DNA from: a virus
IMG/VR virus record: IMGVR_UViG_3300012971_000890
Length of the DNA stretch: 64,000 nt
Direction: 5' to 3' (one strand)
Shown piece after piece: positions 2,885 through 47,197 of the stretch. Positions within the stretch are counted from its first letter, which is position 1. Every line of letters begins with the position of its first letter. The position numbers and the translations under genes are program-made. A model generated the notes under the pieces. That model searched no databases, was not told where the DNA came from, and was given only the letters and a program-made list of their open reading frames with translations.

Positions 2885-3664
2885 ACCCTAAATAACAACA
2901 TGGCAGACGGATTTTCAGAGTTCTTCCAAGAACACTGGCTGGTGGAGCATGAAGACGTAAAGCTCCAGGTGCGGGACATCCTCAAGCAGACCAAGCCGAA
3001 GACGAAACGGGGCCTGCTCATTGTGTTTGAAGGCATCGACGGAGCCGGCAAATCCACCCAGGTCGATCTCCTCAAAAAGTGGCTGGAGAAGGAGCAGAAT
3101 TATGCCGTGACCTATACCAAGTGGAATTCGGCCAAACCCATCAAGCCCATCACCAGCAAGCTCAAGGATAAGCGGGAACTCAGTCCCGTTCTGTACAGCC
3201 TGATGCACGCCGCCGACATGGTTCACCGCTACGAAAATACTATCCTTCCAGCACTGTCGGCCAACAAGATCATAATTTGTGACCGCTACCTCTACACCAG
3301 CATCGTCCGCGACAAGGCCCGTGGCGTGGACGTGGAGTGGCTGAACAAGGTCTACAAGGACATGCGCGAGCCGGACATTCTTTTCCACTGCGCCGTGCCC
3401 ATCCACGTCGCTTTCGGGCGGCTCGTCAAGGAGAAGGGCCTGACCTACTACGGCACCGGCAGCGATCTGAACTTGGCAGACAGCCGCGAGGAGAACTACA
3501 TCAAGTACGAAAACATCCTCGACAAACTCTATCGCAAAGTTCTGCCAGAAGTGAAGTCCTACCATAAGCTGGATATGCGCAAAAGCATCCCGGAAATTCA
3601 AGACGACATCCAAGACATTGTGAAGAAAAAGACCGGAATCGGCAAGTACGCGAAGGAGGAATAG
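2876..3664 (+). CDS. tmk: thymidylate kinase
   Basis: P-loop IVFEGIDGAGKST; DRY-like CDRYLYTS; 262 aa. Confidence 0.85.
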   Translation: MGHTLNNNMADGFSEFFQEHWLVEHEDVKLQVRDILKQTKPKTKRGLLIVFEGIDGAGKSTQVDLLKKWLEKEQNYAVTYTKWNSAKPIKPITSKLKDKRELSPVLYSLMHAADMVHRYENTILPALSANKIIICDRYLYTSIVRDKARGVDVEWLNKVYKDMREPDILFHCAVPIHVAFGRLVKEKGLTYYGTGSDLNLADSREENYIKYENILDKLYRKVLPEVKSYHKLDMRKSIPEIQDDIQDIVKKKTGIGKYAKEE

Positions 3665-5932: not shown

Positions 5933-6982
5933 ATGAGTTTACGAATGATCGACGGGTTCGACCACTATAACTGGTCGCAGATGATGCGAAAGTGGAGTAC
6001 CTATGTCACGGGCTACATCGGCAACCCCGTGATCGGCCCTGGCAACGGTCGCTTCGGGGGCGGGGCGATGTACAATGGCGCGGCGGGTGGCCAGTACGCG
6101 CAACAATCGGTCTTTAAGACGTTAGACCCCCAATCCACCTGGATTTTAGGCGTGGCCTTTAAGTGGACCGGCGGCAACGTCTCCGCGTCCACAGTCCTCC
6201 TGGGCGTGTACGATGTTAACAGCAAGCAGGTCGATGCCCGCCTAAACTCCGACAATACGATGTCAGTCACCAGAGCAGGAACGGTCTTGGGGACAACCAG
6301 CTTCGTCATGAGTTCGGGCGCGTGGTACTATATCGAACTGAAAACGACCATCCACCCCACCGCCGGCAGCTTCGACCTGCATATCAACGGCGTATCACGC
6401 ACATCTGCCACCAACGTCAACACTCGCAACACGGCCAACAATACAGCGAACCAAGTCAGCATCGGCTTCCCGGACCAGACCAACACCGGCAGCATCACGA
6501 CGCTTGCCTTCGATGATTTTTATGCCTGCGACGGCAACGGCACCGTCAACAACAACTTCCTGGGCGATGTGAGAGTCGAGACACTTTATCCCAACGCGGT
6601 CGGCGCTACCACGCAGTTCACACCTACCAGTGGCACCAACTTCGGGTGCGTCAATGAAAATCCCATGAATGACGACGCGAGCTACGTTTACGGCAACACG
6701 GTGGGGAATATTGACACTTATAAGATCAGCGCGCTGTCCAGCATACCGCAAACCATCATGGGCACGCAGATTAACTCCACCGCCAGGAAGGACTCGTCGG
6801 GAAACCGGGCGATGGAGTTGGTAGTCCGATCTGGGGCTGCCAACTACCTCGGTTCTGACAACTACACAAATGCAACCTACGCGACGTACAACCGCATTGA
6901 CGAGACGGACCCGGCCACCAGCGCCCCTTGGACATCCCCTGGTATTGCCGCCGTCGAGATCGGACACAAACTAAGCATCTGA
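5933..6982 (+). CDS. structural paralog 1 of a 4-member tandem family (tail/fibre-associated candidate)
   Basis: MSLRMIDGFDHY N-terminus; conserved TRNTAN, NNFLGD, ARKD, RIDETDP..APWT blocks shared with the 6992, 8478 and 9528 genes. Confidence 0.65.
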   Translation: MSLRMIDGFDHYNWSQMMRKWSTYVTGYIGNPVIGPGNGRFGGGAMYNGAAGGQYAQQSVFKTLDPQSTWILGVAFKWTGGNVSASTVLLGVYDVNSKQVDARLNSDNTMSVTRAGTVLGTTSFVMSSGAWYYIELKTTIHPTAGSFDLHINGVSRTSATNVNTRNTANNTANQVSIGFPDQTNTGSITTLAFDDFYACDGNGTVNNNFLGDVRVETLYPNAVGATTQFTPTSGTNFGCVNENPMNDDASYVYGNTVGNIDTYKISALSSIPQTIMGTQINSTARKDSSGNRAMELVVRSGAANYLGSDNYTNATYATYNRIDETDPATSAPWTSPGIAAVEIGHKLSI

Positions 6983-6991
6983 GAGGAAAAC

Positions 6992-8005
6992 ATGCTGCGA
7001 TTTATGGATGGTTTCGATCACGTCGCTCTGGCAAACGTTGCCCAAAAATGGACCAATGCCAACTTGACACAGGTGTTCCTGCAAACCCCAGGACGGTTTG
7101 GCGGCTCGTACCTCCACTTCCACCAGGGCAACTCGTATGTGGGGAAGACCCTCGACAACCAAGCATCATGGGTGGTGGGCTTTGCTCTGCGCGTCGGAGT
7201 CGGTTATTCCGTTATCACCCCCTTATTCCAACTATTGGACGCCGGCACCATCCAGGTTGAGTTGTGGATTAAGAATGATAACACCCTGTTTGTTGCCCGC
7301 AACGGCACGGCGGTCACTGGCAGCAACTTTGCGTTTACCCCCGGCATCTGGCATTACGTCGAATACAAAGTCACCATCAGCGCCAGCATCCCTGCGAACT
7401 CATGGAAGGTCCGGGTGGATGGGCAGGACGTAATAAACGTACCAGCCGGCCAATCGTCCAAGAACACGGCGAACAGCACTGCCAATCAGATTAAATTTGG
7501 TCCCATAAACCAGAACGACGACCCCGATTACGACGACATATACATCTGCGACAGTCAAGGCACTACCAACAACGATTTCCTGGGCGATACAAAAGTCGTA
7601 ACGATGTTTCCCACATCGGCGGGCACCACAACCCAATGGACCCCACTTTCGGGTGCCAATTATACCAATGTAAACCAGACCCAACCCGACGACGATGCTT
7701 CTTACGTCTATACCTCCACGCCTGGGCAGACCGACACCTACCTTTGTGGGGACATTACCGATAACCCGGTCAACATCTTCGGAGTACAGACCAACCTTTA
7801 TGCCCGCAAAGACGACGCCGGAGTGAGAACCGTATCCAAGGTAATACGTTCGGGCGGGACAAATTACCCAGGGGCGGCGGTGGACAACTTGGCAGCCAAT
7901 TACGTCTTTTACACCGAAATAGATGAAAAAGACCCAGGCACCGGAGCCGCGTGGACAAAGGCTGGTTTCAATGCCGCAGAGTTCGGAGCAACCATCATCG
8001 CGTAA
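6992..8005 (+). CDS. structural paralog 2
   Basis: MLRFMDGFDHV; same conserved blocks (NDFLGD, YARKDD, EIDEKDPGTGAAWT). Confidence 0.65.
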   Translation: MLRFMDGFDHVALANVAQKWTNANLTQVFLQTPGRFGGSYLHFHQGNSYVGKTLDNQASWVVGFALRVGVGYSVITPLFQLLDAGTIQVELWIKNDNTLFVARNGTAVTGSNFAFTPGIWHYVEYKVTISASIPANSWKVRVDGQDVINVPAGQSSKNTANSTANQIKFGPINQNDDPDYDDIYICDSQGTTNNDFLGDTKVVTMFPTSAGTTTQWTPLSGANYTNVNQTQPDDDASYVYTSTPGQTDTYLCGDITDNPVNIFGVQTNLYARKDDAGVRTVSKVIRSGGTNYPGAAVDNLAANYVFYTEIDEKDPGTGAAWTKAGFNAAEFGATIIA

Positions 8006-8014
8006 AGGAGGGTA

Positions 8015-8449
8015 ATGGCTGTATTCACCAAGTTCTATCAATTCGTCCAAGACGTTGCCAATAAGGTCCACAACCTGGGCACCGATAACTTGAAAATGAT
8101 GTTGACCAACACCGCCCCGGTGTTAACTAATAAAGTCAATGGGGATTTGACCGAGATCACGGCGCAGGGTGGTTACACCGCCGGGGGCGCAACGGTAACC
8201 ATCTCCTCCAGTATCCAAAGCACCGGCATTTATCGACTCATTCCGTCCGCCGACGTTGTATGGAACGGGACGGGGAGCGGTTTCGGACCCTTCCGGTACA
8301 TCGTCCTATACAACAGCGTTGCCGGACCTGATGCCACCCACCGCCCGCTCGTCGCCGTATGGGACTTCGGCAGCAACGTCACCATCAATAGCGGCGATAC
8401 CTTCACTGTCAGCCTCGATAAAGTAAACGGCATCATTACGCTGCAATAA
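8015..8449 (+). CDS. hypothetical structural protein
   Basis: 144-aa ORF embedded in the paralog array; RBS GGAGGG. Confidence 0.5.
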   Translation: MAVFTKFYQFVQDVANKVHNLGTDNLKMMLTNTAPVLTNKVNGDLTEITAQGGYTAGGATVTISSSIQSTGIYRLIPSADVVWNGTGSGFGPFRYIVLYNSVAGPDATHRPLVAVWDFGSNVTINSGDTFTVSLDKVNGIITLQ

Positions 8450-8450
8450 A

Positions 8451-8462
8451 GCTATATAACAG
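8451..8462 (+). promoter_or_regulatory. GCTATATAACAG promoter-like motif
   Basis: Identical 12-mer recurs at about 15493; sits 16 nt upstream of the GTG start at 8478. Confidence 0.45.
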
Positions 8463-8477
8463 CGAAGGAGGTACATC

Positions 8478-9518
8478 GTGGCGCTCAGATTCGTTGACGG
8501 ATTCGATCATTACACAACGCCGACTCAAGCACTCAGAAAGTGGACGGCCAATTACACTAGCTACCCTGGAACCTTTGGCGGCACAAGCACTGGTCGTTTT
8601 AGTGGCGGTTCCTACCATATAAATAACTGCTATTCCGGCAACCCCCTTATAAAGACCCTCGACGCCCAGCCAACCTGGATACTAGGCACGGCCCACAAAT
8701 TCAACATGATAACCACGGGCGTTCAAGTATTCGCCGTGCTGGACGGGAACACGTTACAAATGGATGTTCGGCAGAATGCCGATGGCACGATGAGCGTCAC
8801 TCGTAACGGCACGGTCCTGGGCACAACCCCGTCTGCCGTGGGCCTCGCCAACCAGTGGAATTACTACGAGTTCAAGACCACCATTCACCCCACGGCGGGC
8901 GCTTATGAACTACGAGTCAACGGTCAAAGCCTGCTTTCTGCCACCAACGTCAATACCAGGAACACGGCCAACAGTTCCGCCAACCAGATACAGTGCGCCA
9001 GTTGGGCCACCAGTTACAACGGCGGTAGCGGCGTCTACGATTTCGATGACTTCTATGCCTGCGATGGAACGGGAACAAATAACAACGATTTTCTGGGGGA
9101 AATGAGAATTGAAACCCTGTATCCGAACTCACCGGGGACCAACACAAACTTCACCCCAAACCCCGCCGGGGCTAATTACGCCAACGTCAAGGAAACCCCT
9201 CCCGACGATGACGCCTCGGTGGTCATGGGCGGCACCTTCGGTTTGATGGATACCTACCTCATGAGCCATTTGAGTGGCACACCCACCAGCATCAAAGGCA
9301 CGATGCTCACCATCATGGCTCGAAAGGACAACGCGGGCACCAGAGCGGTGTCCCCTGTGATTCGCTCAGGAGGCAATAACAACACCGGGGCCACCATGTA
9401 CCTGGGGGCGTCCTATGTGTGCTATATGCGAATTGACGAAACGGACCCAGGGACCGGGGCAGCGTGGACGGCGGCAGGGGTAAACGCGGTAGAGTGCGGG
9501 CAAAGTGTAACCATATGA
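8478..9518 (+). CDS. structural paralog 3 (GTG start)
   Basis: MALRFVDGFDHY; blocks TRNTAN, NNDFLGE, ARKDNAGTR, RIDETDPGTGAAWT. Confidence 0.65.
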   Translation: MALRFVDGFDHYTTPTQALRKWTANYTSYPGTFGGTSTGRFSGGSYHINNCYSGNPLIKTLDAQPTWILGTAHKFNMITTGVQVFAVLDGNTLQMDVRQNADGTMSVTRNGTVLGTTPSAVGLANQWNYYEFKTTIHPTAGAYELRVNGQSLLSATNVNTRNTANSSANQIQCASWATSYNGGSGVYDFDDFYACDGTGTNNNDFLGEMRIETLYPNSPGTNTNFTPNPAGANYANVKETPPDDDASVVMGGTFGLMDTYLMSHLSGTPTSIKGTMLTIMARKDNAGTRAVSPVIRSGGNNNTGATMYLGASYVCYMRIDETDPGTGAAWTAAGVNAVECGQSVTI

Positions 9519-9527
9519 AGGAGGAAC

Positions 9528-10550
9528 GTGTCGCTGAGGTTTGTGGACAGTTTCGACCATTACGCCACCGCCAACGGCGCGCAAAAATGGACCAGCGTGG
9601 ACCATTTCACGATTGTGTCACCTGGCAGGTTCGGCACCGGCCAGTGTATGCAACTGTCTATGAACTGGCCGAACGTAACGAAAACGCTGGACGCCCAGCC
9701 AACCTGGATCATCGGCTTTGCCATAAAACTTAGTGCCTGGGTCAATGGGCCGACGCTACTAATCGTCCTCCAAGACGGCGCAAACTATCAGGCCGACCTC
9801 CGACTCAACCCCGATGGCACACTGTTCGTAACCCGAAACGGGACGGCTGTTACCGGAGGGACCAGTACCCGCTCTTTGCGTCTAAACACTTGGTACTACG
9901 TCGAGATGAAATGCACCATAGCGACGAGCATCCCGGCTAATTCCTGGCAGGTGCGAGTCAACGGTACGCAAGTCATCAGCGTGACGGCGGGCCAGAGTTC
10001 CCAGGTTACAGCCAACGCTACCGCCAACACGGTGAGGATCGGCGGGAACATGGGTACTTCCGCCTTCAACGCCTGGTTTGACGACCTTTATATGTGCGAC
10101 GGGCAAGGCAGCGCCAATAACGATTTTCTGGGCGACCTCAAGATCGTAGCCGTCTTGCCCAACGCCGCCGGCACCCTGACGCAGTGGGGTTCCCTGAGCG
10201 GACCCAACTACACCAACGTTAACCAACAGACGCCCGACGACGACACGTCCTACGTTGTCAGTTCCACGCCAGGTCAGATCGACACCTACCTTACCCCCGG
10301 CATCAGTGAAACACCCACGAATATTATTGGCGTACAGGCGGGCCTATACGCCCGCAAGGACGACGCTGCCACCCGAACGTTGACCAAGGTAATAAGGTCT
10401 GGCGGGGTTGCCTACACCGGCCTCAACCTTGCTATGACCACCACTTACGCTTATTACCTGGACATCAACGAGACGGACCCTGCCACCGGGTCGGCATGGA
10501 CCAAGGCGGGCGTCAACGCGGCTGAAATTGGAGTGCAGGAGATTGCATAA
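9528..10550 (+). CDS. structural paralog 4 (GTG start)
   Basis: MSLRFVDSFDHY; blocks NNDFLGD, YARKDDAATR, INETDPATGSAWTKAGVNAAE. Confidence 0.65.
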   Translation: MSLRFVDSFDHYATANGAQKWTSVDHFTIVSPGRFGTGQCMQLSMNWPNVTKTLDAQPTWIIGFAIKLSAWVNGPTLLIVLQDGANYQADLRLNPDGTLFVTRNGTAVTGGTSTRSLRLNTWYYVEMKCTIATSIPANSWQVRVNGTQVISVTAGQSSQVTANATANTVRIGGNMGTSAFNAWFDDLYMCDGQGSANNDFLGDLKIVAVLPNAAGTLTQWGSLSGPNYTNVNQQTPDDDTSYVVSSTPGQIDTYLTPGISETPTNIIGVQAGLYARKDDAATRTLTKVIRSGGVAYTGLNLAMTTTYAYYLDINETDPATGSAWTKAGVNAAEIGVQEIA

Positions 10551-12829
10551 TGGCCAACCGCGTATCCCAGGAAGTTATCGAAGTCGTCTACCAAGTGAAC
10601 CCCAACGCCCTGGTTACGCAGGATGTGGTGGAGGTCGCAGACGCTTATGCCAGCAACGCCCTGGTCACCCAGGACGTGCTGGAAGTCGTAGACGCTCCGA
10701 CCAGTAATCTGGTGGTTACCCAGGACGTGCTGGAGGTCTTGGACTCCACGCCCAGCAGCCTCCGTGCCACCCAAGTCACCCTTGAAGTTCTGCGCACCGT
10801 CACAGGCACGACGCCTCAGAACTACTTCGTTCCGGCCCAGCGCGGGCAGTTCATGGTAACCATGATGGGGGCGTCCGCTCCTCCATCCAATTATTCCCAG
10901 GTAATCGAGCAGGAAACGGGGCTAGTTTCATACTGGCAACTTAATGAAACCTCCGGCACGACCGCCACCGACAGCCAGGATGCCAACAACGGGGCATTTA
11001 CGGGCGGTTATACCCTCAACCCGGCCCCTCCCGGCACCCAAGTGCAAGGGGCCGTCACCCTGGACGGTAGCACGAACTACCTGTCGGTCAACCGAAATAT
11101 CCAAGACGACTTTACCATCGAATTCTGGTTCAAGACCACCGGGAGTGCGCCGGCAGGGAGCAACTATTACAATGGGTGGGGCCTGGTTAATGCTGAAGTT
11201 AGCGGCGTTACCAACGACTTCGGCACGAGTCTAGTAAACGGTGGACAAGTCGCCGCCGGCACAGGCAATCCCGACACCACCATCCGCAGCGTTGCCACCA
11301 ACCTCAATGACGGCAACTGGCACTACGTCGCCTTTACGCGAGTGCGATCAACGGGCGTAATCAATCTGTATGTCGATTCGGCGGCAGCAGTAACCGCACT
11401 CGGCAACTCCGGTGGCCTTACCGCCCCTGCCGCCATCAACTTTGGTCGAATCCTGTCTGGTGGTGGTTTCTTCCCTGGATCGCTGTCCAACGTGGCCTTC
11501 TATAACGTCGCCCTGTCCTCGGCCCAGGTGACAGCGCACTTCAACGCGGCGACAGGTGGTTCGCCTTACAGTGGCGTCATACTGGCGACAATGGGCATCG
11601 TATCCCTGTGGCAACTGCACGACCCCTACCTGGGCAGAGGGGCTTTCGACAGCAAGGGCGGTAATCCCGGTTACTTCTTTGGCTACAACTACCTTCTGGA
11701 CTCCGGCCCCGGCTCACTGATGTCCGGCTCGACGTTATTTAACGGGAGCAACGGATACATCCAAGTGCCCAACTCGGCCAACCTGTCGATCACAGGAAAT
11801 ATTACGGTTGAAGCCTGGTTCATGCTCAACACCGTGCAATCGGGCACCTGGAACAAAATCGTTGAGAAAGGTTTCTCATCTGGTTCGTCGCCGTATATCA
11901 ACTACTGCCTGGGAACCAACACCGGCAATCCATCGGCTTCTTCCGGCAATTATGTCGGCAACGGCAACGGCACCCTGGAGTGGTCACTGGCGCTCGGCGG
12001 TGTGCTTTATGAGTGCTTCAGCAAAACCATCCCGACCGCCGGCCAGTGGTACTACGTTGTGGGCACCTACGACGGTGCCAACCTGCGAATCTATGTGAAC
12101 GGCGTTCTGGAAAACACCCTGGCAGCAACCGGGGCAATCACCAATAGCGGCCAGCCGTTCATGATCGCCGCTCACAACCGGGGCGGCAGTCTGGGTGAAT
12201 ATTTCCCAGGCGAACTGTCCAACGTCGCCGTGTACAATGTTGCCCTCACCCAGACCCAAATCACCACCCACTACGCCAGCGCCGGCAACCCCAACGCCCG
12301 GCTTTCGCAGGAAGCGGTGGATACGCTATACACCGACGTAGCCAATGCGCGACTGTCGCAGGAAACGGCAGAGGTACTGTACGGGGACAATGCCAATTTA
12401 CTGGTCACCCAGGAAGCCCTGGAAGTGGCCCACATTGCAGCCAATACCAACCTTCTGGTCACCCAGGAAGCCCTGGAAGTGGCCCACATTGCCAGCGACA
12501 CAAACCTCCTCGTAACGCAGGAAGCCCTGGAGGTTTTGCGCAGTAGCGCGAACGCGACAAACGCAAGGTTGACGGCTTTATCAACGTGCGTGGGCACCAG
12601 CACGGTTACGCACATGCCCCAGGCAGCGATTACCGCCAGGGCCAGCATCGTCGCGCGGGCCGCAGCCGCACGCCCCGGTGTCGCCGCCCTCGCCGCCAAG
12701 ACATCCCTCGCCATTACAGGCAATGTCCTGCACAGCATTTTCCTCGGCGTAAATCGGGGCCGGATCATAAATATGGGTGGGGTTGGGGCGGGAAGACGGT
12801 CCAGCCTGGTCAATTGCGGAGGAGTTTAA
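10550..12829 (+). CDS. tail-fibre-like protein with two LamG/concanavalin-like domains and terminal 17-aa repeat arrays
   Basis: DFTIEFWFKT..WHYVAFTR..LYVD and VEAWFML..WYYVVGTYDG..IYVNG (LamG signatures); N-terminal (NALVTQDVLEV)x4 and C-terminal (N..LVTQEALEV)x5 repeats. Confidence 0.7.
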   Translation: MANRVSQEVIEVVYQVNPNALVTQDVVEVADAYASNALVTQDVLEVVDAPTSNLVVTQDVLEVLDSTPSSLRATQVTLEVLRTVTGTTPQNYFVPAQRGQFMVTMMGASAPPSNYSQVIEQETGLVSYWQLNETSGTTATDSQDANNGAFTGGYTLNPAPPGTQVQGAVTLDGSTNYLSVNRNIQDDFTIEFWFKTTGSAPAGSNYYNGWGLVNAEVSGVTNDFGTSLVNGGQVAAGTGNPDTTIRSVATNLNDGNWHYVAFTRVRSTGVINLYVDSAAAVTALGNSGGLTAPAAINFGRILSGGGFFPGSLSNVAFYNVALSSAQVTAHFNAATGGSPYSGVILATMGIVSLWQLHDPYLGRGAFDSKGGNPGYFFGYNYLLDSGPGSLMSGSTLFNGSNGYIQVPNSANLSITGNITVEAWFMLNTVQSGTWNKIVEKGFSSGSSPYINYCLGTNTGNPSASSGNYVGNGNGTLEWSLALGGVLYECFSKTIPTAGQWYYVVGTYDGANLRIYVNGVLENTLAATGAITNSGQPFMIAAHNRGGSLGEYFPGELSNVAVYNVALTQTQITTHYASAGNPNARLSQEAVDTLYTDVANARLSQETAEVLYGDNANLLVTQEALEVAHIAANTNLLVTQEALEVAHIASDTNLLVTQEALEVLRSSANATNARLTALSTCVGTSTVTHMPQAAITARASIVARAAAARPGVAALAAKTSLAITGNVLHSIFLGVNRGRIINMGGVGAGRRSSLVNCGGV
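10603..10800 (+). repeat. about 51-nt coding tandem repeats (x4) at the 5' end of the fibre gene
   Basis: Repeated ctggt(c/t)ac(c/g)caggacgtgctggaagtc units. Confidence 0.6.
12292..12550 (+). repeat. about 51-60-nt coding tandem repeats (x5) at the 3' end of the fibre gene
   Basis: Repeated ctggtcacccaggaagccctggaagtggcccacattgc units. Confidence 0.6.
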
Positions 12830-18180: not shown

Positions 18181-19287
18181 TTAGGCGTTCGCCCCCGCCG
18201 GTTGCGGCTGTTGCATCCGCACGGCCTGGGCCTTGAGGTCGGTGATGGCCGTCTCCAGGTTGGTGAGCCGGCGCATCTTGGTGCGGTTGGTGGCGAGGTC
18301 GCTCACGTCACGCAGGGGAATGGTCTGGAGCTTGAGGGTCCAAGCCTCGATCTCCTCGAAGATGCTGCCGCTCGAACTGATGCGGTCGTAGGCGTTGCGA
18401 ACCGTCATCTCGTCGTCCGTCAGCAACTCCAGGCCCTCCGGGGACGCCAGGATCGTGGGCAGGCGGTCGCGGGTGTCCTTGACTTCCTTGATCTGCCGGT
18501 TGGCCACCAGATCATCGAAGGTCTTGTGGTTGGCCTCGTCGCTCTCGATCCAGGCCCGCAGCGTCTCGTCGCGCATGATCTGGCGGTAGTGCGACAGCAG
18601 GTTGCTCTGCGCCTTGGGGGCGGTGATGGTGCCACCCTCGGCGGCAATGCGAGCGCGGTGCTTGAGCAGCAGGTCGTAGGCATCCAGGCGGTTCTGCATG
18701 GAGTCCTTGTTCTCCCGCGTGCGCCGCGCCAACTCGTCCACCGTCGTGCCGGCCTGGTACAACTGCCACAGCACTTCCATCTGGTCGGGCTTCAGCCAGC
18801 CCTTCTTGGTGGAAACGTGCCAGTCCAGCAGCAACTTCTTCACATCCAGGTCGCTGGCTGCCTGGGGGATGCGGCAGAAGTAGATGTCCCGGATATTGGC
18901 CTTGATGGCGTCGGGAACCTCGGCGGACTGCAACAACTTGCGGAGGCACACCAAACGCCGGTTGCCCTCAGCAACAATGTCATCGGGGCGGACGAAGGGC
19001 ATTTCAATCAGCCCGCCGTCCCCCAGGATTTGCTGGTAGAGGGCCTTCGTGTCCGCCTGCTGCCAGATGCGCTCCTCCATCTGCTGCTCGGTCACGCCGT
19101 TGGAGAAACCCAATTCGGCGTGCAGGCGGGGATTGCTGAGGTCCAGGTGCAGATTGGCCACCGGACCCTTCTCCACCCCAATTGGGAGGGGCTTGCCTCC
19201 GACGTAGATGTTGTGGGTGGGAGTGGCGGGCGCGGGCCGATGCGGGGCGGGCGCAGCGTTCCGCCGCGCCCCAGGGGGGTTAGGCAT
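18181..19287 (-). CDS. ParB-like nuclease domain protein
   Basis: LHLDLSNPRLH, GGLIEMPFVRPDD..EGNRRLVCLRKL resemble the ParB N-terminal domain. Confidence 0.55.
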   Translation of the reverse strand: MPNPPGARRNAAPAPHRPAPATPTHNIYVGGKPLPIGVEKGPVANLHLDLSNPRLHAELGFSNGVTEQQMEERIWQQADTKALYQQILGDGGLIEMPFVRPDDIVAEGNRRLVCLRKLLQSAEVPDAIKANIRDIYFCRIPQAASDLDVKKLLLDWHVSTKKGWLKPDQMEVLWQLYQAGTTVDELARRTRENKDSMQNRLDAYDLLLKHRARIAAEGGTITAPKAQSNLLSHYRQIMRDETLRAWIESDEANHKTFDDLVANRQIKEVKDTRDRLPTILASPEGLELLTDDEMTVRNAYDRISSSGSIFEEIEAWTLKLQTIPLRDVSDLATNRTKMRRLTNLETAITDLKAQAVRMQQPQPAGANA

Positions 19288-19419
19288 GACCTACTCCTTA
19301 CTAGAGAGAGTCAGCGACCAGCGCAGGAACACGGGTTCGTGTTGGAAACTGCGCTGGCCGGTTTGGCGACTCGATCAAACCACCCCACAGTATGGGAACC
19401 TCAAACCGATCTGTCAAGA

Positions 19420-20200
19420 TCAATCTTCGTCCTTTTCCACGGACTGGAACAGGATGTCGAACTTGCCCCGCATCACCCCCTGGATGTCGCGGGTCTTCAC
19501 CCCCAGCCGGTGGTCGGACACGCGGCTCAGGATGAAGTTGTAAGTTCTTATTTTCCCACCGCGCCCGCCGCTCCCCAGGGCGTCCTTGCGGGCCGAGGCG
19601 TAGGCGGCGTTGGCGGCATTGCGCCGTTTTTCGCGCCACCGGGCGTTGACGATCTTGATGGCCTCCTCCTTGTTCTTGCCCTGGTCGCGCCCGTTGATAA
19701 AGACCCGGATCGCCGGGTCTTTTTTATAGACGCACCGAATGGCTGAGGCCACTTTGTTTACGTTCTGCCCACCGGCATTCTGCTTCCCCGTCTGGGCAGT
19801 GATCTCCAAGTCAGAGAGCGGGATCACGTCCTTGGGATCGGCTGGGGGCAAGGGCAGGACGGCCACCGAGATCATGCTGGTCTGGCGGCGTCCCTTGGTT
19901 TCGGTGGGCGGGACACGCTGGACGCAGTGGCCCCCGGTTTCGTGCTGGAACGCCTGGAAGACGCCCCGGCCCCGGAACTGGATGATGATGTGGCCGTTTT
20001 CAGAAGTGAGGGTTTCGTGCTTGAAGCCCTTGGAATCCGCGTATTTGCGGTAGGCTTCCGCCAAGGATTCGACAAACAGTTTGCTGTCGTCGCCACCCTC
20101 ACCGAACTGAAGTTCAACGATCAGTTCGGTGGCGCGCTCAAAGGGAGTCCAGGGGCTTGTTTTGGCCGACCCACTCCTGGTGGATGTGACGCTTGAATTT
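19420..20200 (-). CDS. class I peptide-chain release factor homolog lacking domain 1 (RF1-type PxT; PrfH-like); N-terminus uncertain
   Basis: GGQ (AGGQNVNK), PPT motif (VQRVPPTETKGRRQTS), RTYNF..VSDHR blocks; homology (ELQFGEGGDD) extends upstream of the TTG ORF start toward an ATG ORF ending CTT TGA. Confidence 0.6.
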
Positions 20201-20284
20201 CTTGCTCATGGCAATCGCTCCTTTCGGTGAGAGAAAGTTTCCCACCAGTATCGTACTGGCGGGGCGGGGATTTGTCAACCCGAT

Positions 20285-20633: not shown

Positions 20634-21353
20634 CTAGTCCTTATTCTCGTTTTCAAGTTCCACGTTCCAATAGCACACGTCGAGCCATTGCTTCCAGCTT
20701 TGGTAATAAACATCGCCCTTGAAGAAGTTATATTCCGGCTTCTTCGGCTCGCGGATGGTGGCCTCCCACGTCTTCCGGCCACTCTGGAAATGGCAGGTGA
20801 AGTAGGTAACCTGAACGTTATGCTCCACGACCACCTTGCGCCGGGGCATCCGGTCAGCCTTCGCCTTGTTACAGGCGATGCACGCCAGGCAGCAGTTCTC
20901 CCAGGTCGTTTTGCCACCCAGGCTGCGAGGCGTGATGTGGTCGATGGTCAGTTCCTCGGACGGGAACTTCTTGTGGCAATACTGGCAGCGCAAGCCATCC
21001 CGCTTGTAGATCGTCCGCCGGCTGAAGTGAATCTTCTGGATCGGCAGCTTGTCGTACCGATTCAGCTTGATGACTTCAGGAATGCGGAACGTCCCCCGGC
21101 AGCCGTGAATAGCGGCCTCGTCGTCCTTCGGGCGCAACTCGGCCCACTGCTGCCAGGTGTAAGGCTGGAAGCTGTACTGTGGCGACCCGTCGTCGCTGTG
21201 CCCGATAACCTCGTGGTCCACGATCTCGGCTTTCGGCGCACCGTGGGCGTCCGTGCTAAACAGCATGACGATAGCACGCGGCAGAGTGACCACCCCCACG
21301 GCGGTCCAGTTCTTGTTGAGTACCAAACACTTACGGTGCGCGAAAGTTCTCAT
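20634..21353 (-). CDS. HNH endonuclease
   Basis: CQYCHKKF..LTIDHITPRSLGGKTTWENCCLACIACN HNH motif. Confidence 0.75.
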   Translation of the reverse strand: MRTFAHRKCLVLNKNWTAVGVVTLPRAIVMLFSTDAHGAPKAEIVDHEVIGHSDDGSPQYSFQPYTWQQWAELRPKDDEAAIHGCRGTFRIPEVIKLNRYDKLPIQKIHFSRRTIYKRDGLRCQYCHKKFPSEELTIDHITPRSLGGKTTWENCCLACIACNKAKADRMPRRKVVVEHNVQVTYFTCHFQSGRKTWEATIREPKKPEYNFFKGDVYYQSWKQWLDVCYWNVELENENKD

Positions 21354-22652: not shown

Positions 22653-23114
22653 TTAGTAGAGCCGGAGCGGATGAGTCCCTTCCGGGCCGGTGATGGCGTC
22701 AATGGCGTCGGCCTGGTTGGGGCCGATGCCCAGGGCGGTGTTAGTCGCCATCCCCTTGCGGCCCTGGCCGGCGGCAGTCAGGCCCAGGTCTTGAATTAAA
22801 AAGGTTTCAAGCCCCGCGATCTCGCACAGACGCTTGACCTCCAGCAGTTCATCCTCGTTCTGGGCCTGGAGGACGACCTTGGTGGTCAGGGTGCTTTCCA
22901 GCCACTCACGCTGGTCGGGGGTGATGCGAAGAATGTCCCATATGGTGGTGCCGGAGAACCCCTGAGCCGCCTGGAGAATGCGTTCCACCAGGAAGGCGCA
23001 GGCGGCGTGGCTACCCTGGGCGATCTCCTTCCCCCTCCGCATACCCACATCCCTGCGGATCACCAGCACTTGCTTCACGTTGTCGCCGGGCTTCGGCGTA
23101 GCTGATTCCATTGG
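22653..23114 (-). CDS. peptidyl-tRNA hydrolase, PTH2 family
   Basis: KQVLVIRRDVGMRRGKEIAQGSHAA and GMATNTALGIGP blocks typical of PTH2; start uncertain (ATG 23114 or downstream GTG). Confidence 0.6.
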   Translation of the reverse strand, partial: PMESATPKPGDNVKQVLVIRRDVGMRRGKEIAQGSHAACAFLVERILQAAQGFSGTTIWDILRITPDQREWLESTLTTKVVLQAQNEDELLEVKRLCEIAGLETFLIQDLGLTAAGQGRKGMATNTALGIGPNQADAIDAITGPEGTHPLRLY

Positions 23115-23304
23115 GGCCTCGCTTGCAGTTGATTTCTTCTTTGGTATCTTCCCGTACCCAGACCAGGAAATCGCACAGGACCGCGTAACGTTCCTTTGCG
23201 TCTTCGTGCTTACTATACTCCGAGAACAACCAGTGTGCCACCTTGATTTCCAGGTGTTCCTGAAACTCCTCAAGAAAGTCGGCCATATGCTCGAATGATG
23301 GCAT
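23011..23304 (-). CDS. hypothetical protein (overlaps the PTH2 5' end)
   Basis: 97-aa ORF; overlaps the neighbour. Confidence 0.25.
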   Translation of the reverse strand: MPSFEHMADFLEEFQEHLEIKVAHWLFSEYSKHEDAKERYAVLCDFLVWVREDTKEEINCKRGPNGISYAEARRQREASAGDPQGCGYAEGEGDRPG

Positions 23305-44301: not shown

Positions 44302-44574
44302 TTAAGGCCCCCAATGCTCGTGGAACCCTAGTTCCTCGGACTGGATCACCTTTTTCTCGATTTCAATAATAGAGTGCCCAAGCTCGGTTTCCTGCTCGAC
44401 CTCGGCCAAGGCGAACTCCTTGCTGATGGGGCCTTGTAGGGTGTGCATCTTGAACCCCTCCGGCCACTGCCGGATATGCTCCATGACCCGCTTTTTAGTT
44501 TCCTGGTCCACTATCCGCCTCCGTGTTAATTCCAAGCTCGTCCCGAAGCTCCTGGGGAATGCCCGAAGGGGCAT
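44302..44574 (-). CDS. hypothetical protein
   Basis: 90-aa ORF. Confidence 0.3.
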   Translation of the reverse strand: MPLRAFPRSFGTSLELTRRRIVDQETKKRVMEHIRQWPEGFKMHTLQGPISKEFALAEVEQETELGHSIIEIEKKVIQSEELGFHEHWGP

Positions 44575-45982
44575 CCATCACCGATGTCCGGCCACTGCCC
44601 GTCATGGGAAACGGGATGACCTCCTTGAGCGACGATTCTCCACAGAGTAGCATAACCAGGCGGTCTATGCCTAGCGCAATTCCCCCGTGCGGAGGCGTGC
44701 CCAGGTCGAAAGCCTCCAGCATGTGGCCCACACTGTCCAGCGTGTCGGGCTGATTGTAGCCCATGTTGCGAAAAGTGGCCTCCAAAATCTCCCGGCGGTG
44801 GGCGCGGATGCTGCCACTCCCGATCTCGTAGCCGTTGCACACAAGGTCATACTGATATGCCTGCACCCGCTCCAGATTTATTCCCTGCATGTGCCATTCC
44901 AGATGCTCGGCAATCGGCATCGAGAAGGGGTTGTGCATAAAAGTATAATCCCCCTTGGCGTCCAGCCGGTCTTCCGCCGTGACGACTTTCTTGTACATGG
45001 GGAAACGAGTCACCCAACAGAAGGCCAACAGGTTCTCAGCCTTTTCCTGGGGCGTGCGGATGTCAGGTTTGTCGGTCCCGTACATTTCCATCGCCTCGGC
45101 GTGGGTCAGCACCGGGAAACAGGAACGGCAGCCGTCCAAAAGGTCATAGCGGCTGTCCGTCTGGTCATTACACTTGCGCCCGGTCTTGGAACAGCAGAAT
45201 CGCACAACGTCGCTAATATGATGGAAAATACGCCATTCCTCCGGGAAGGCCATTTCCACGTCCAATTGCGTGAACTCAAACCCCCGGTCGTGGCGCAGGG
45301 ACTCGTCGCGGACGCACCTGGCGATCTGATAGTACCCCTGGAAACCCGCCGTCATTAGCAACTGCTTATATTGCTGCGGACTCTGGGGCAGGGCGTAGAA
45401 CTTCCCCGGCTGAAGGCGGGACGGCACCACAAAATCGCGCGCCCCCTCCTTCGTGGACTTGGTAAGGAGTGGCGTTTCGATCTGGGTGAACTTGGTCACC
45501 GAGCATTCACCCAGGATTTGATGGATGCACTTATAAACCTGGGCGCGGATAGTCAGGTTTCGCTGCATCCGCCTGCGGCGCAGGTCCAGGTAACGGAAGC
45601 GGAGCCGCATCTCCTCGTTAATATCACGCCCATCCCCGTCAATCGGGATCGGCAGTTCCTTGCACTTGTTGAGGACCGTGCAAGACTCCACCACGACCTC
45701 CACCGTGCCGGTGGCCATGTCCGGGTTGACGAGATGTTCGGGCCGCTTCACGATCCTGCCGGTGATCTCCACCACGTCTTCGGCGTTCAAGTCCTGCATC
45801 ATGTTGCGGCCCACGCACTGCACGATCCCGCTAAAGTCGCGGAGGTCCACAAAGACCAGCTTGCCGTGGAGACGCACCGTGTTCACCCAACCGTGCAGTC
45901 GCCACAAAGTAGCATCCGCGCCGCCGTTACCAAAGATTCGAGGGGTGGAGGATGCTTCGGTTAATTGTCCTGGCTGTTTCAT
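44495..45982 (-). CDS. aspS: aspartyl-tRNA synthetase
   Basis: OB-fold LHGWVNTVRLHGKLVFVDLRD; motif 2 IARCVRDESLRHDRGFEFTQLDVE; motif 3 GGIALGIDRLVMLL. Confidence 0.85.
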   Translation of the reverse strand: MKQPGQLTEASSTPRIFGNGGADATLWRLHGWVNTVRLHGKLVFVDLRDFSGIVQCVGRNMMQDLNAEDVVEITGRIVKRPEHLVNPDMATGTVEVVVESCTVLNKCKELPIPIDGDGRDINEEMRLRFRYLDLRRRRMQRNLTIRAQVYKCIHQILGECSVTKFTQIETPLLTKSTKEGARDFVVPSRLQPGKFYALPQSPQQYKQLLMTAGFQGYYQIARCVRDESLRHDRGFEFTQLDVEMAFPEEWRIFHHISDVVRFCCSKTGRKCNDQTDSRYDLLDGCRSCFPVLTHAEAMEMYGTDKPDIRTPQEKAENLLAFCWVTRFPMYKKVVTAEDRLDAKGDYTFMHNPFSMPIAEHLEWHMQGINLERVQAYQYDLVCNGYEIGSGSIRAHRREILEATFRNMGYNQPDTLDSVGHMLEAFDLGTPPHGGIALGIDRLVMLLCGESSLKEVIPFPMTGSGRTSVMDAPSGIPQELRDELGINTEADSGPGN

Positions 45983-46951
45983 AATGTTTCCAAGTAAGTC
46001 GTCACGGCGGCGACCCGCTCCTGCATGGGCATACGGCGGATATATTCTCCGTTCAACCACAGCAGTTTGCCAGGGTCGAAGGAAGCGGGCGAGTCGTTGA
46101 CCCCGGCCAGGGAAAAGCAGTCGATCAGCTTCTCCACCGAGAATATCTCCGTCGAGCCGTCCAAGGCCCAGCCCAGGCGGGCCAGGTAGTTGATGAGGGC
46201 GGCGGGCACGAACCCCATCTTCTGGTAGTATCCCAGGACCGCCGGGTTCAGGTCGTTTCGCTCCCTCACGTCTTGTTCGCTGAAACCGAGCTTTTTTAAT
46301 TTCGCCAGCACGTCCGCAGTCATGAACTGGTCCAGATCGCGCTTGCTCAGCTTCTTTTTCGAGCCGGGGGCGCAGATAAACGACAGGTGGGCAAAACGCG
46401 GCTCATCCCACCCCAAGGCCCGAAATAGCGCCAACTGGATCGGCAAGTTGCTCAGGTGTTCCTCGCCGCGCAGTATGTGGGTCACGCCCATGTCGTGGTC
46501 ATCGACCACCGTTGCGAAATTATACAGGAAGGTGCCGTCCGACCGCCTTATAACCGGGTCTTGAATGAGTTTGTCATCCCAACTGACCTTCCTCCGAATC
46601 AAATCGAAACAGCCGATGCCCACGCCGTCGTCCCAATGAGGTATGCTGAGCCGCACTGCCTTGCCGTCCTGGTAGGCCCAGCCCGACTTCAGCATCGTGT
46701 CGCACACTTCGCGGTAGCGCTCACCACGCTTCGACTGATAAAACGGGCCTTGGTCGAAGTCGAGGCCGAGCCAGCCCAGGCCGTCGAGGATGGGCTGGAC
46801 GGCTTCGGCCAGGTTGCGTTCGGTGTCGGTATCGTCAATGCGGAGGATGAACTGGCCTTTGTGGTGGCGGGCATAAAGCCAGTTATAGAGGGCAGTGCGG
46901 ACGCCGCCGATGTGCAGGTAGCCGGTGGGGCTGGGGGCAAAGCGTGTGACG
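45979..46951 (-). CDS. glutamyl-tRNA synthetase catalytic core (GluRS/GluQRS-like, no anticodon-binding domain); start codon unresolved
   Basis: HIGH region RFAPSPTGYLHIGG; KMSKS as KLSKR; ends after LLWLN block; no in-frame ATG near RFAPSP (possible ATT or long N-terminal extension). Confidence 0.7.
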
Positions 46952-46954
46952 ACT

Positions 46955-47197
46955 CTAGTAATAGTAGCCCTTCCAGGCGAAGAAGATTCGCCACACGATG
47001 TAAATGATGGCCGCGACACCGCCAAGCTCCCCCAGGAAGTGCAAAACGGCGGACAGCCGTTTGTATTTCCGCGCATAAGCAAACCAAGACGCCAGGCACA
47101 GGCCCGCCACGAAGACAATGAGGGCGACTAGCATCACATTGTCCAGCCATTCGAGGAAGTGCCACCGTTCCACGATGCGCTGGGTATGAGGGTTCAT
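46955..47197 (-). CDS. small membrane protein
   Basis: Two TM helices; 80 aa. Confidence 0.45.
   Translation of the reverse strand: MNPHTQRIVERWHFLEWLDNVMLVALIVFVAGLCLASWFAYARKYKRLSAVLHFLGELGGVAAIIYIVWRIFFAWKGYYY

Follow-up and report, generated by a model that had tools for sequence, protein, structure and literature searches.

The best-known example of autoregulatory recoding is the frameshift in prfB, the gene for release factor 2 (RF2), and it has been regarded as unique to RF2. Its cassette reads AGGGGG-NNN-CUU-UGA-C, in which the C after the stop codon provides a weak termination context (PMC12421855). Here, we describe a comparable arrangement in a 64,000-nucleotide (nt) stretch of viral DNA, IMG/VR record IMGVR_UViG_3300012971_000890 (hereafter the window, on whose numbering the coordinates are given). 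A minus-strand gene in this window very likely encodes a phage class I release factor of the RF1 type that lacks domain 1 and is predicted, from sequence comparison, to be expressed through an RF2-style programmed +1 frameshift.

The RF1 gene, prfA, has so far stood apart from this kind of control. A survey from 2025, covering over 12,000 genomes, reported no programmed frameshift in prfA and found TAG in none of 8,164 prfB motifs (PMC12421855). A 2016 review of recoding described a UAG/RF1 counterpart of RF2 regulation as 'unknown' and stated that a readthrough-type sensor had never been seen for release-factor genes (PMC5009743). Huge phages are reported to encode 'release factor 1 and 2' (PMC7162821), and in recoded phages RF1 was found in the TGA-recoded Jade group and RF2 in the Lak and Agate groups (Borges et al.); truncation, a CUU-stop cassette, and frameshifting all go unmentioned in these reports. 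A broad survey of release-factor evolution mentions neither phages nor frameshifts (PMC6514570). In RECODE, every CUU-stop +1 entry is prfB. As to the release-factor gene of a giant amoeba virus, the factor is reportedly of the eukaryote type and the site of a different kind. That gene needs both readthrough and frameshifting (PMC5009743). We found no prior description of phage release-factor frameshifting in the literature searched, subscription journals lying outside it, and within that literature a frameshift-gated RF1-type gene is undescribed.

Anatomy and conservation of the CTT-stop site

The locus (Table 1) follows the plan of prfB: a short leader open reading frame (ORF) with its own Shine–Dalgarno (SD) sequence and ATG ends in CTT TGA after 23 codons (in E. 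coli prfB, the TGA is codon 26), and the body of the gene continues in the +1 frame, beginning with GAG at 20139. A first-pass annotation of this DNA, made from the letters alone, had recognized both the 23-codon leader and the +1 offset of the release-factor frame (20139 to 19420), and both descriptions hold; the ATG lies 9 nt beyond position 20200, where the annotated interval ended. With CTT as the P-site slip codon, the E-site codon is TCC (20146-20144). The release-factor frame is bounded upstream by a stop (TGA, 20208-20206) that overlaps the leader ATG, is open from 20205 onward, and has no ATG, GTG, or TTG between 20208 and the TTG at 20064. Release-factor homology starts at the first +1 codon, and the predicted leader-body fusion is 262 amino acids long, with the trans-frame junction ...NKPLDSL-ERATELIVELQ..., i.e., ...GQNKPLDSLERATELIVELQFGEGGDDSK.

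Gene callers and the ORF listing both start the gene at this TTG and give a 214-residue product (P0001), which a protein database search finds 100% identical on three contigs. Were that start real, there would be no recoding at all: the upstream ORF would be unrelated and ERATELIVELQFGEGGDDSK would be left untranslated. We regard this as extremely improbable. The first-pass annotation had already traced homology upstream of the TTG, and the segment in question, ELQFGEGGDDSKLFVES, turns out to hold the family-invariant residues G13, G15, G16, D18, K20, and F22, which align with the alpha-5 tip of RF1, the element that reads the first base of the stop codon. Because it lies downstream of these residues, the TTG is most likely a mis-annotated start. 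The N-termini called for the homologues are erratic, and a start at the TTG would leave unexplained the conservation of CTT+stop described below.

The database search returned thousands of short RF1-like proteins. Among the 120 best hits the called N-termini are erratic, and those that are extended nearly always show F[DE], which corresponds to TTTGA in the DNA, about 10 residues before an invariant GxGGxDSK. We compared 40 viral and 80 metagenomic loci, which reduce to 91 unique ones, using a register-aware search for CTT+stop lying one base behind the release-factor frame. The site is present in the correct register in 78 of the 91, mostly 11-14 codons before GxGG. Within the 60-nt zone before GxGG, the hexamer occurs in 77 of 91 loci; shuffled sequences average 3.9 and never exceed 9, so that chance does not account for it. 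The CUU-stop context is thus kept among relatives, most of which do not start cleanly at an in-frame codon. The stop itself varies (TGA 44, TAG 33, TAA 1 at the proximal site), so it is a leader-frame stop that has been kept, not an amino acid in the release-factor frame. This distinguishes the family from prfB, where TAG occurs in 0 of 8,164 genomes; at the distal sites considered below, TAG accounts for 21 of 32.

Other elements of the prfB cassette recur unevenly. In 47 of the 78 loci the stop is followed by C (elsewhere G 17, T 10, A 4), and in many sites GGAGG, GGGGG, or AGGAG stands exactly 3 nt 5' of CTT, as the SD-like stimulator does in prfB. The predicted anti-SD duplex is at least as strong as -6 kcal/mol in 88% of sites at the distal position and in 38% at the proximal one, compared with 9% of background positions. 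Unlike in prfB, many proximal sites, the window's included, lack an SD-like element, and the family instead favors a cysteine codon in the E site (TGT 44, TGC 6, n=78). The closest relatives compared at the site, L122 and L121 (70% and 78% identity), keep AAGGAG with the same 8-nt spacer (start codon ATG in L122, GTG in L121), a homologous 23-codon zero-frame leader, and TG[TC] CTT TGA G. In L122, the leader peptide is MSKKFKRHTCQERITPNKPLDCL; the zero frame is conserved, and third-position changes are synonymous.

The 13 exceptions are informative about two further alternatives. Five are clean in-frame genes with SD and ATG, such as also exist for prfB; these carry CTT GAA at the site position, and one of them, L182, reads CTG CTT GAA, differing from the site by the lack of one T. 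A single extra T relative to L182 would create the pattern in the window, so that a pseudogene or an assembly indel could in principle have broken an ordinary short release-factor gene. We give this next to no credence: the same 'error' would have to recur at the same position in 78 independent loci of 34-88% identity, whose downstream ORFs are intact and under constraint and whose stimulatory elements are conserved, while the window's protein is found identically on three contigs. The comparative data effectively refute it already.

Two other exceptions, L018 and L178, have GTT in place of CTT (GTT TGA), L178 together with a canonical AGGGGG-TTA spacer; re-pairing of tRNA-Val on UUU would be a poorer slip. 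In the remaining six (L005, L021, L132, L155, L168, and L198), an in-frame TGA separates a short SD+ATG leader from domain 2, immediately 5' of the GxGG codons (near position 3000 of the viral loci), where the others have CTT-stop, and in four of the six no start-like codon follows it. This TGA could be a readthrough-type sensor or could simply be a sense codon where the phage or host is recoded. Since these six loci have no slippery codon, some stop-dependent mechanism other than slippage must operate in the family, which lends something to a termination-reinitiation scheme in which the leader ends at UGA and ribosomes restart nearby at a non-canonical codon (e.g., CTG or ATC) without any slip. 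The good SD and ATG of the leader and the way its stop abuts the release-factor frame are in keeping with such a scheme. We nevertheless judge it very improbable for the window, given that it is CTT in particular that precedes the stop in 78 of 91 loci, that SD-like elements sit at the 3-nt spacing of prfB, that no start-like codon past the stop is conserved, that the clean fusions read straight through CTT GAA, and that the end of the leader aligns with the RF1 interdomain linker. Of the two modes of expression put forward in the first-pass annotation, programmed +1 frameshifting is thus the one that the comparison favors, through the conserved site, the clean fusions, and the lack of a start in the release-factor frame; unusual initiation is disfavored.

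Table 1. Features of the release-factor locus in the window
Feature	Position	Strand	Remark
Sigma-70-like promoter, TTGACA-17 nt-TACGAT	20250..20278	-	10/12 consensus matches; upstream of leader
Shine–Dalgarno sequence, AAGGAG	20218..20223	-	8-nt spacer to leader ATG
Zero-frame leader ORF, 23 sense codons, peptide MSKKFKRHIHQEWVGQNKPLDSL	20141..20209	-	ATG at 20209-20207
Shift site, CTT TGA, next base G	20138..20143	-	CTT 20143-20141, TGA 20140-20138
+1-frame release-factor ORF, 239 codons + TGA stop (19422-19420)	19420..20139	-	RF1-like domains 2, 3, 4
Perfect 11-bp hairpin, arms CACCGAACUGA / UCAGUUCGGUG, 10-nt loop	20100..20131	-	starts 6 nt past UGA
TTG, first start-like codon of the release-factor frame	20062..20064	-	gene-caller start, 214-aa product P0001
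13-bp terminator hairpin after the HNH gene	20610-20581	-	precedes release-factor promoter

Identity of the product

The motifs that the first-pass annotation had read in the ORF are all present, namely GGQ (AGGQNVNK), a PxT-type tripeptide (PPT, within VQRVPPTE..GRRQTS), and GGKIRTYNF followed by SDHR, together with GEGGDDSK. Its outline of domains 2-4 of a class I release factor is borne out by profile searches. RF1 matches best, with NF001859 scoring 206.8 bits (cutoff 400) over profile positions 103-341 of 347 only; because the match is confined to these positions, domain 1 is absent. TIGR00019, also RF1, scores 194.8 bits against a cutoff of 423.25, so there is no full-length match above cutoff. 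The RF2 profile reaches 128 bits against the 262-residue fusion, in which Pfam recognizes the C-terminal half of PCRF and the RF-1 domain.

The best solved relative is RF1 of T. thermophilus (residues 98-340; ~35-37% identity to RF1), from which the window's protein departs by a 6-residue deletion in domain 2 and a Gln in place of His193, as well as by the missing domain 1. It retains Q181, P-x-T as PPT, T194, GGQ, and the IRTYNF switch-loop region; PPT is found in 54 of the 91 unique loci. An AlphaFold2 (AF2) model of the fusion, with a predicted local distance difference test (pLDDT) score of 89, superposes on domains 2-4 of ribosome-bound RF1 with template-modelling (TM) scores of 0.86-0.87, whereas the closed free form of RF1 superposes poorly (~0.57). 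The modelled domains thus adopt the open, ribosome-bound arrangement. By profile, sequence, and modelled fold, the gene thus codes for a divergent factor of the RF1 type that lacks domain 1 and is neither PrfH nor ArfB, and from the retained decoding residues we infer that it terminates at UAA and UAG.

Its leader fits this picture. The C-terminal KPLDSL of the leader aligns with PKDPMDE of the RF1 interdomain linker, as expected if the leader is part of the protein. The shift site accordingly falls at the junction with domain 2, whereas that of prfB lies inside domain 1 of an RF2 whose domain 1 is retained. Expression by recoding, as predicted here, further separates the gene from prfA, as does its occurrence on viral contigs (150-570 kilobases (kb) for the relatives); among the matches listed, bacterial species-representative genomes contribute only ordinary RF1, at no more than 41% identity.

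An alternative reading of the same fold keeps the frameshift and changes the function: the product would be a stop-codon-independent ribosome-rescue factor akin to PrfH or ArfB, freeing ribosomes stalled by host anti-phage nucleases. The first-pass annotation had likened the protein to PrfH, and the likeness stands for the architecture, since both lack domain 1. It does not extend to the family. PrfH was rejected as an identity at 28.8 bits (TIGR03072, cutoff 166.65) and ArfB at 22 bits (NF006718, cutoff 100), the full codon-recognition domain of PCRF being present; both scores lie far below cutoff. PrfH differs further in that Q181, P-x-T, T194, and the GxGGxD tip, i.e., the RF1 decoding residues, are conserved throughout the present family, in that frameshift expression is predicted here, and in that no RtcB gene was found among the ten neighboring ORFs scanned. 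Reading the sequence by eye, without scoring, we saw no ArfB-like basic C-terminal tail. The replacement of His193 in the decoding loop and a translation-repair-like neighborhood (a peptidyl-tRNA hydrolase, tRNA arrays, and aminoacyl-tRNA synthetases) speak for rescue. On balance, we find a rescue function unlikely.

Domain 1 of release factors contacts RF3 and the L7/L12 stalk. From this general architecture, the loss of domain 1 predicts a factor that acts independently of RF3.

Predicted shift, sensor types, and tandem cassettes

We propose that ribosomes initiate at the SD and ATG (20209), translate 23 codons, and would then pause, the P site holding CUU and the A site UGA. Release-factor action would free the 23-residue peptide. 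If termination is slow, the peptidyl-tRNA-Leu would re-pair from CUU to UUU in competition with the A-site stop, after which the ribosome would read GAG and stay in the +1 frame, yielding the 262-residue protein with its leader joined to domain 2 at the position of the interdomain linker. In this way, the lower the infected cell's capacity for termination, the more of the factor would be made, and the site and its product would form a sensor-effector loop.

What the loop would sense depends on the stop. At least one UAG or UAA is present in 46 of the 78 site-bearing loci, and in these relatives an RF1-type product could close the loop itself, in true autoregulation. The other 32 loci, including the window, have UGA only. 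The window's loop most likely reads the sufficiency of host RF2, unless the specificity of the product is broader than its PxT motif suggests.

In 32 loci, a second CTT+stop lies 28-70 nt upstream, placed so that a +1 shift enters the leader frame (shuffled sequences average 0.8 and never exceed 5). Such tandem cassettes, which set the family apart from prfB, occur in 41% of site-bearing loci. Their layout comprises an SD and ATG, a leader of 7-18 codons (typically MSKKN..RR), a strong SD-like element 3 nt before the first CTT-stop, a middle segment of 9-23 codons, and a (TGT)CTT-stop leading into domain 2; the middle segment contains no start-like codon in 16 of the 32. The stops at the first and second sites are TAG/TAG in 11 loci, TAG/TGA in 10, TAA/TAG in 5, TAA/TGA in 2, and TGA/TGA in 4. 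In LR756511.1, a publicly deposited huge phage of 595 kb, CTT TAA C comes first and CTT TGA C second. The window represents the single-site form with a UGA sensor, and some single-site genes retain an in-frame relic of the first cassette. One kilobase upstream of a double-cassette gene, in L001 (1891-1963), ARAGORN calls a tRNA-like element with a 2-nt 'anticodon' (tRNA-???, tg), possibly an unusual tRNA and possibly an artefact.

A more ambitious reading, which we put forward only tentatively and think rather less than likely, is that of a dedicated RF3-independent phage termination factor, gated by one or two tandem +1 frameshift sensors of the UGA, UAG, or UAA type, perhaps with broadened stop specificity. 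On this reading, loci with unlike stops in tandem (10 with UAG before UGA, 7 with UAA before either UAG or UGA) would constitute an ultrasensitive AND gate that reads the sufficiency of host RF1 and RF2 separately. The replacement of His193 by Gln and the lack of co-variation between decoding residues and sensor may point to such a broadened, possibly omnipotent, specificity. If it were omnipotent, every sensor type would be truly autoregulatory, and the relatives with an in-frame UGA would embody the long-predicted, never observed 'readthrough-autoregulated' design of release factor. The best residue-sensor association (K/R in GGQNVN[KR], p = 2.7e-4 over 147 tests that ignore kinship) falls outside the decoding motifs, and we do not take it as evidence for a specificity switch tied to the sensor stop.

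The in-frame-TGA relatives raise yet another possibility, namely that the gene belongs to the genetic-code-switch module of a stop-recoded phage and boosts termination at UAA and UAG while UGA is suppressed. Borges et al. found RF1 beside a suppressor tRNA and TrpRS in TGA-recoded phages, and when ORF coverage was computed under codes 4 and 15, a test that is noisy on GC-rich or short loci, four of the six in-frame-TGA loci gained more code-4 coverage than most controls. In the window, TGA is a functional stop, ending the release-factor gene itself and 43 of 89 greedily called ORFs, and no suppressor was found among its 13 tRNAs or in the flanks of 16 related loci. A code-switch role for the window's gene is therefore quite improbable in our estimation.

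Several points weigh against an RF2-style frameshift producing a phage RF1-type factor in the window. (i) The SD-like element that the first-pass annotation had suggested looking for is absent 5' of the window's CTT (CCCCTGGACTCC-CTT), where the anti-SD duplex of -3.0 kcal/mol is background-like (background median -1.6).

(ii) The base after UGA is G and not C, so the weak stop context of the prfB cassette is missing, and the E-site codon is TCC, whereas TGT is typical of the family and TGY of the close relatives.

(iii) His193 is replaced by Gln in most family members, which makes codon specificity uncertain, and no residue in the decoding motifs was associated with the type of sensor stop in the 147 tests.

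(iv) Strict autoregulation would not apply in the window if, as expected of an RF1-type (PPT) product, the factor does not read UGA; its predicted UAA/UAG specificity mismatches the UGA sensor, in contrast to prfB.

(v) 'Phage-encoded' is possibly untrue of the whole family, because two relatives have bacterial-looking neighbors: MarR, Pirin, DoxX, and DUF1501 beside P0002 (84% identity), and a 1202-residue TPR Ser/Thr kinase beside P0005 (78% identity). The family may thus occur in bacterial, possibly planctomycete, chromosomes or prophages too.

A local feature bears on the first of these points. With UGA in the A site, the hairpin downstream of it (Table 1) would, by our reckoning, lie at about the mRNA entry channel. 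We consider this hairpin a possible stimulator specific to the lineage, which might act in place of the SD-like element that the site lacks. Measured against synonymous recodings of the same peptide, it is much the more stable, with z-scores of -3.65 (window), -3.81 (L122), and -1.78 (L121). Across the family, downstream structure is a weak trend (mean z only -0.92), and alifold found no family-wide consensus structure.

The family would add to known release-factor recoding a prfB-like cassette placed on an RF1-type factor, the use of all three stops, and frequent tandem duplication. Its cassettes come with and without the SD-like stimulator, the conserved E-site cysteine codon often standing in, and so offer a natural variant series for dissecting what makes CUU-stop sites shift, as well as a way into how large phages track the host's capacity for termination and add to it. 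A practical consequence is that gene callers mis-annotate such genes, as with the 214-residue call in the window.

Genomic context and neighboring genes

Upstream of the leader lies a putative promoter, called by consensus match alone (Table 1); two promoter-like sites were found, against 0.4 expected in shuffled sequences. The release-factor gene looks like its own transcription unit, since the terminator hairpin of the HNH gene precedes this promoter. The second sigma-70-like site (TTGACA-17-CATACT, 10/12 matches, 19389-19417, minus strand) begins 3 nt past the release-factor stop codon and presumably drives the downstream 368-residue ORF (18181-19287), for which no Pfam or PHROG family match was found.

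The HNH endonuclease gene lies immediately upstream (20634-21353, minus strand) and adjoins the release-factor gene in about 15 related loci (30-64% identity), a closer conservation than a free-standing homing endonuclease would be expected to show. A peptidyl-tRNA hydrolase of the PTH2 (archaeal/eukaryotic) type follows at 22653-23273 (minus strand), 2.4 kb upstream of the release-factor gene. PTH2 recurs near the gene in L009, L010, and L170 and on the 670-kb contig of P0003, which shows the same PTH2-HNH-release factor synteny, and the association may represent a translation-rescue module. Besides HNH and PTH2, the ten neighboring ORFs scanned include phosphoribosyltransferase-like and AIR-synthase-related genes and several without a family match.

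The window carries 13 tRNA genes, scattered over 26778-60650 and all on the minus strand, and related release-factor genes often lie within tRNA arrays. Two adjacent aminoacyl-tRNA synthetase genes, a class II gene of the D/K/N type (44495-46060, minus strand) and a class I gene of the E/Q type (45979-47118, minus strand), overlap by ~80 nt. Together with the 13 tRNA genes, this pair marks an extended phage translation module. These genes, PTH2, and the PHROG families represented in the window, along with the viral contigs that carry the relatives, speak for a phage setting of the release-factor gene.

A megablast search with 24 kb of the window gave no match among deposited phages. Farther from the release-factor gene, four tandem paralogues of phrog_2448 (function unknown, ~340 residues each) occupy 5933-10550 on the plus strand and are followed by a 759-residue Laminin_G_3 protein (10550-12829); these genes may form a diversified structural or receptor-binding cluster. 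A 969-residue ORF at 30536-33445 (minus strand) matches the Major Vault Protein shoulder (PF11978, 7.7e-26) and a vault repeat (PF17795, 2.5e-10), which is unusual in a phage-like genome.

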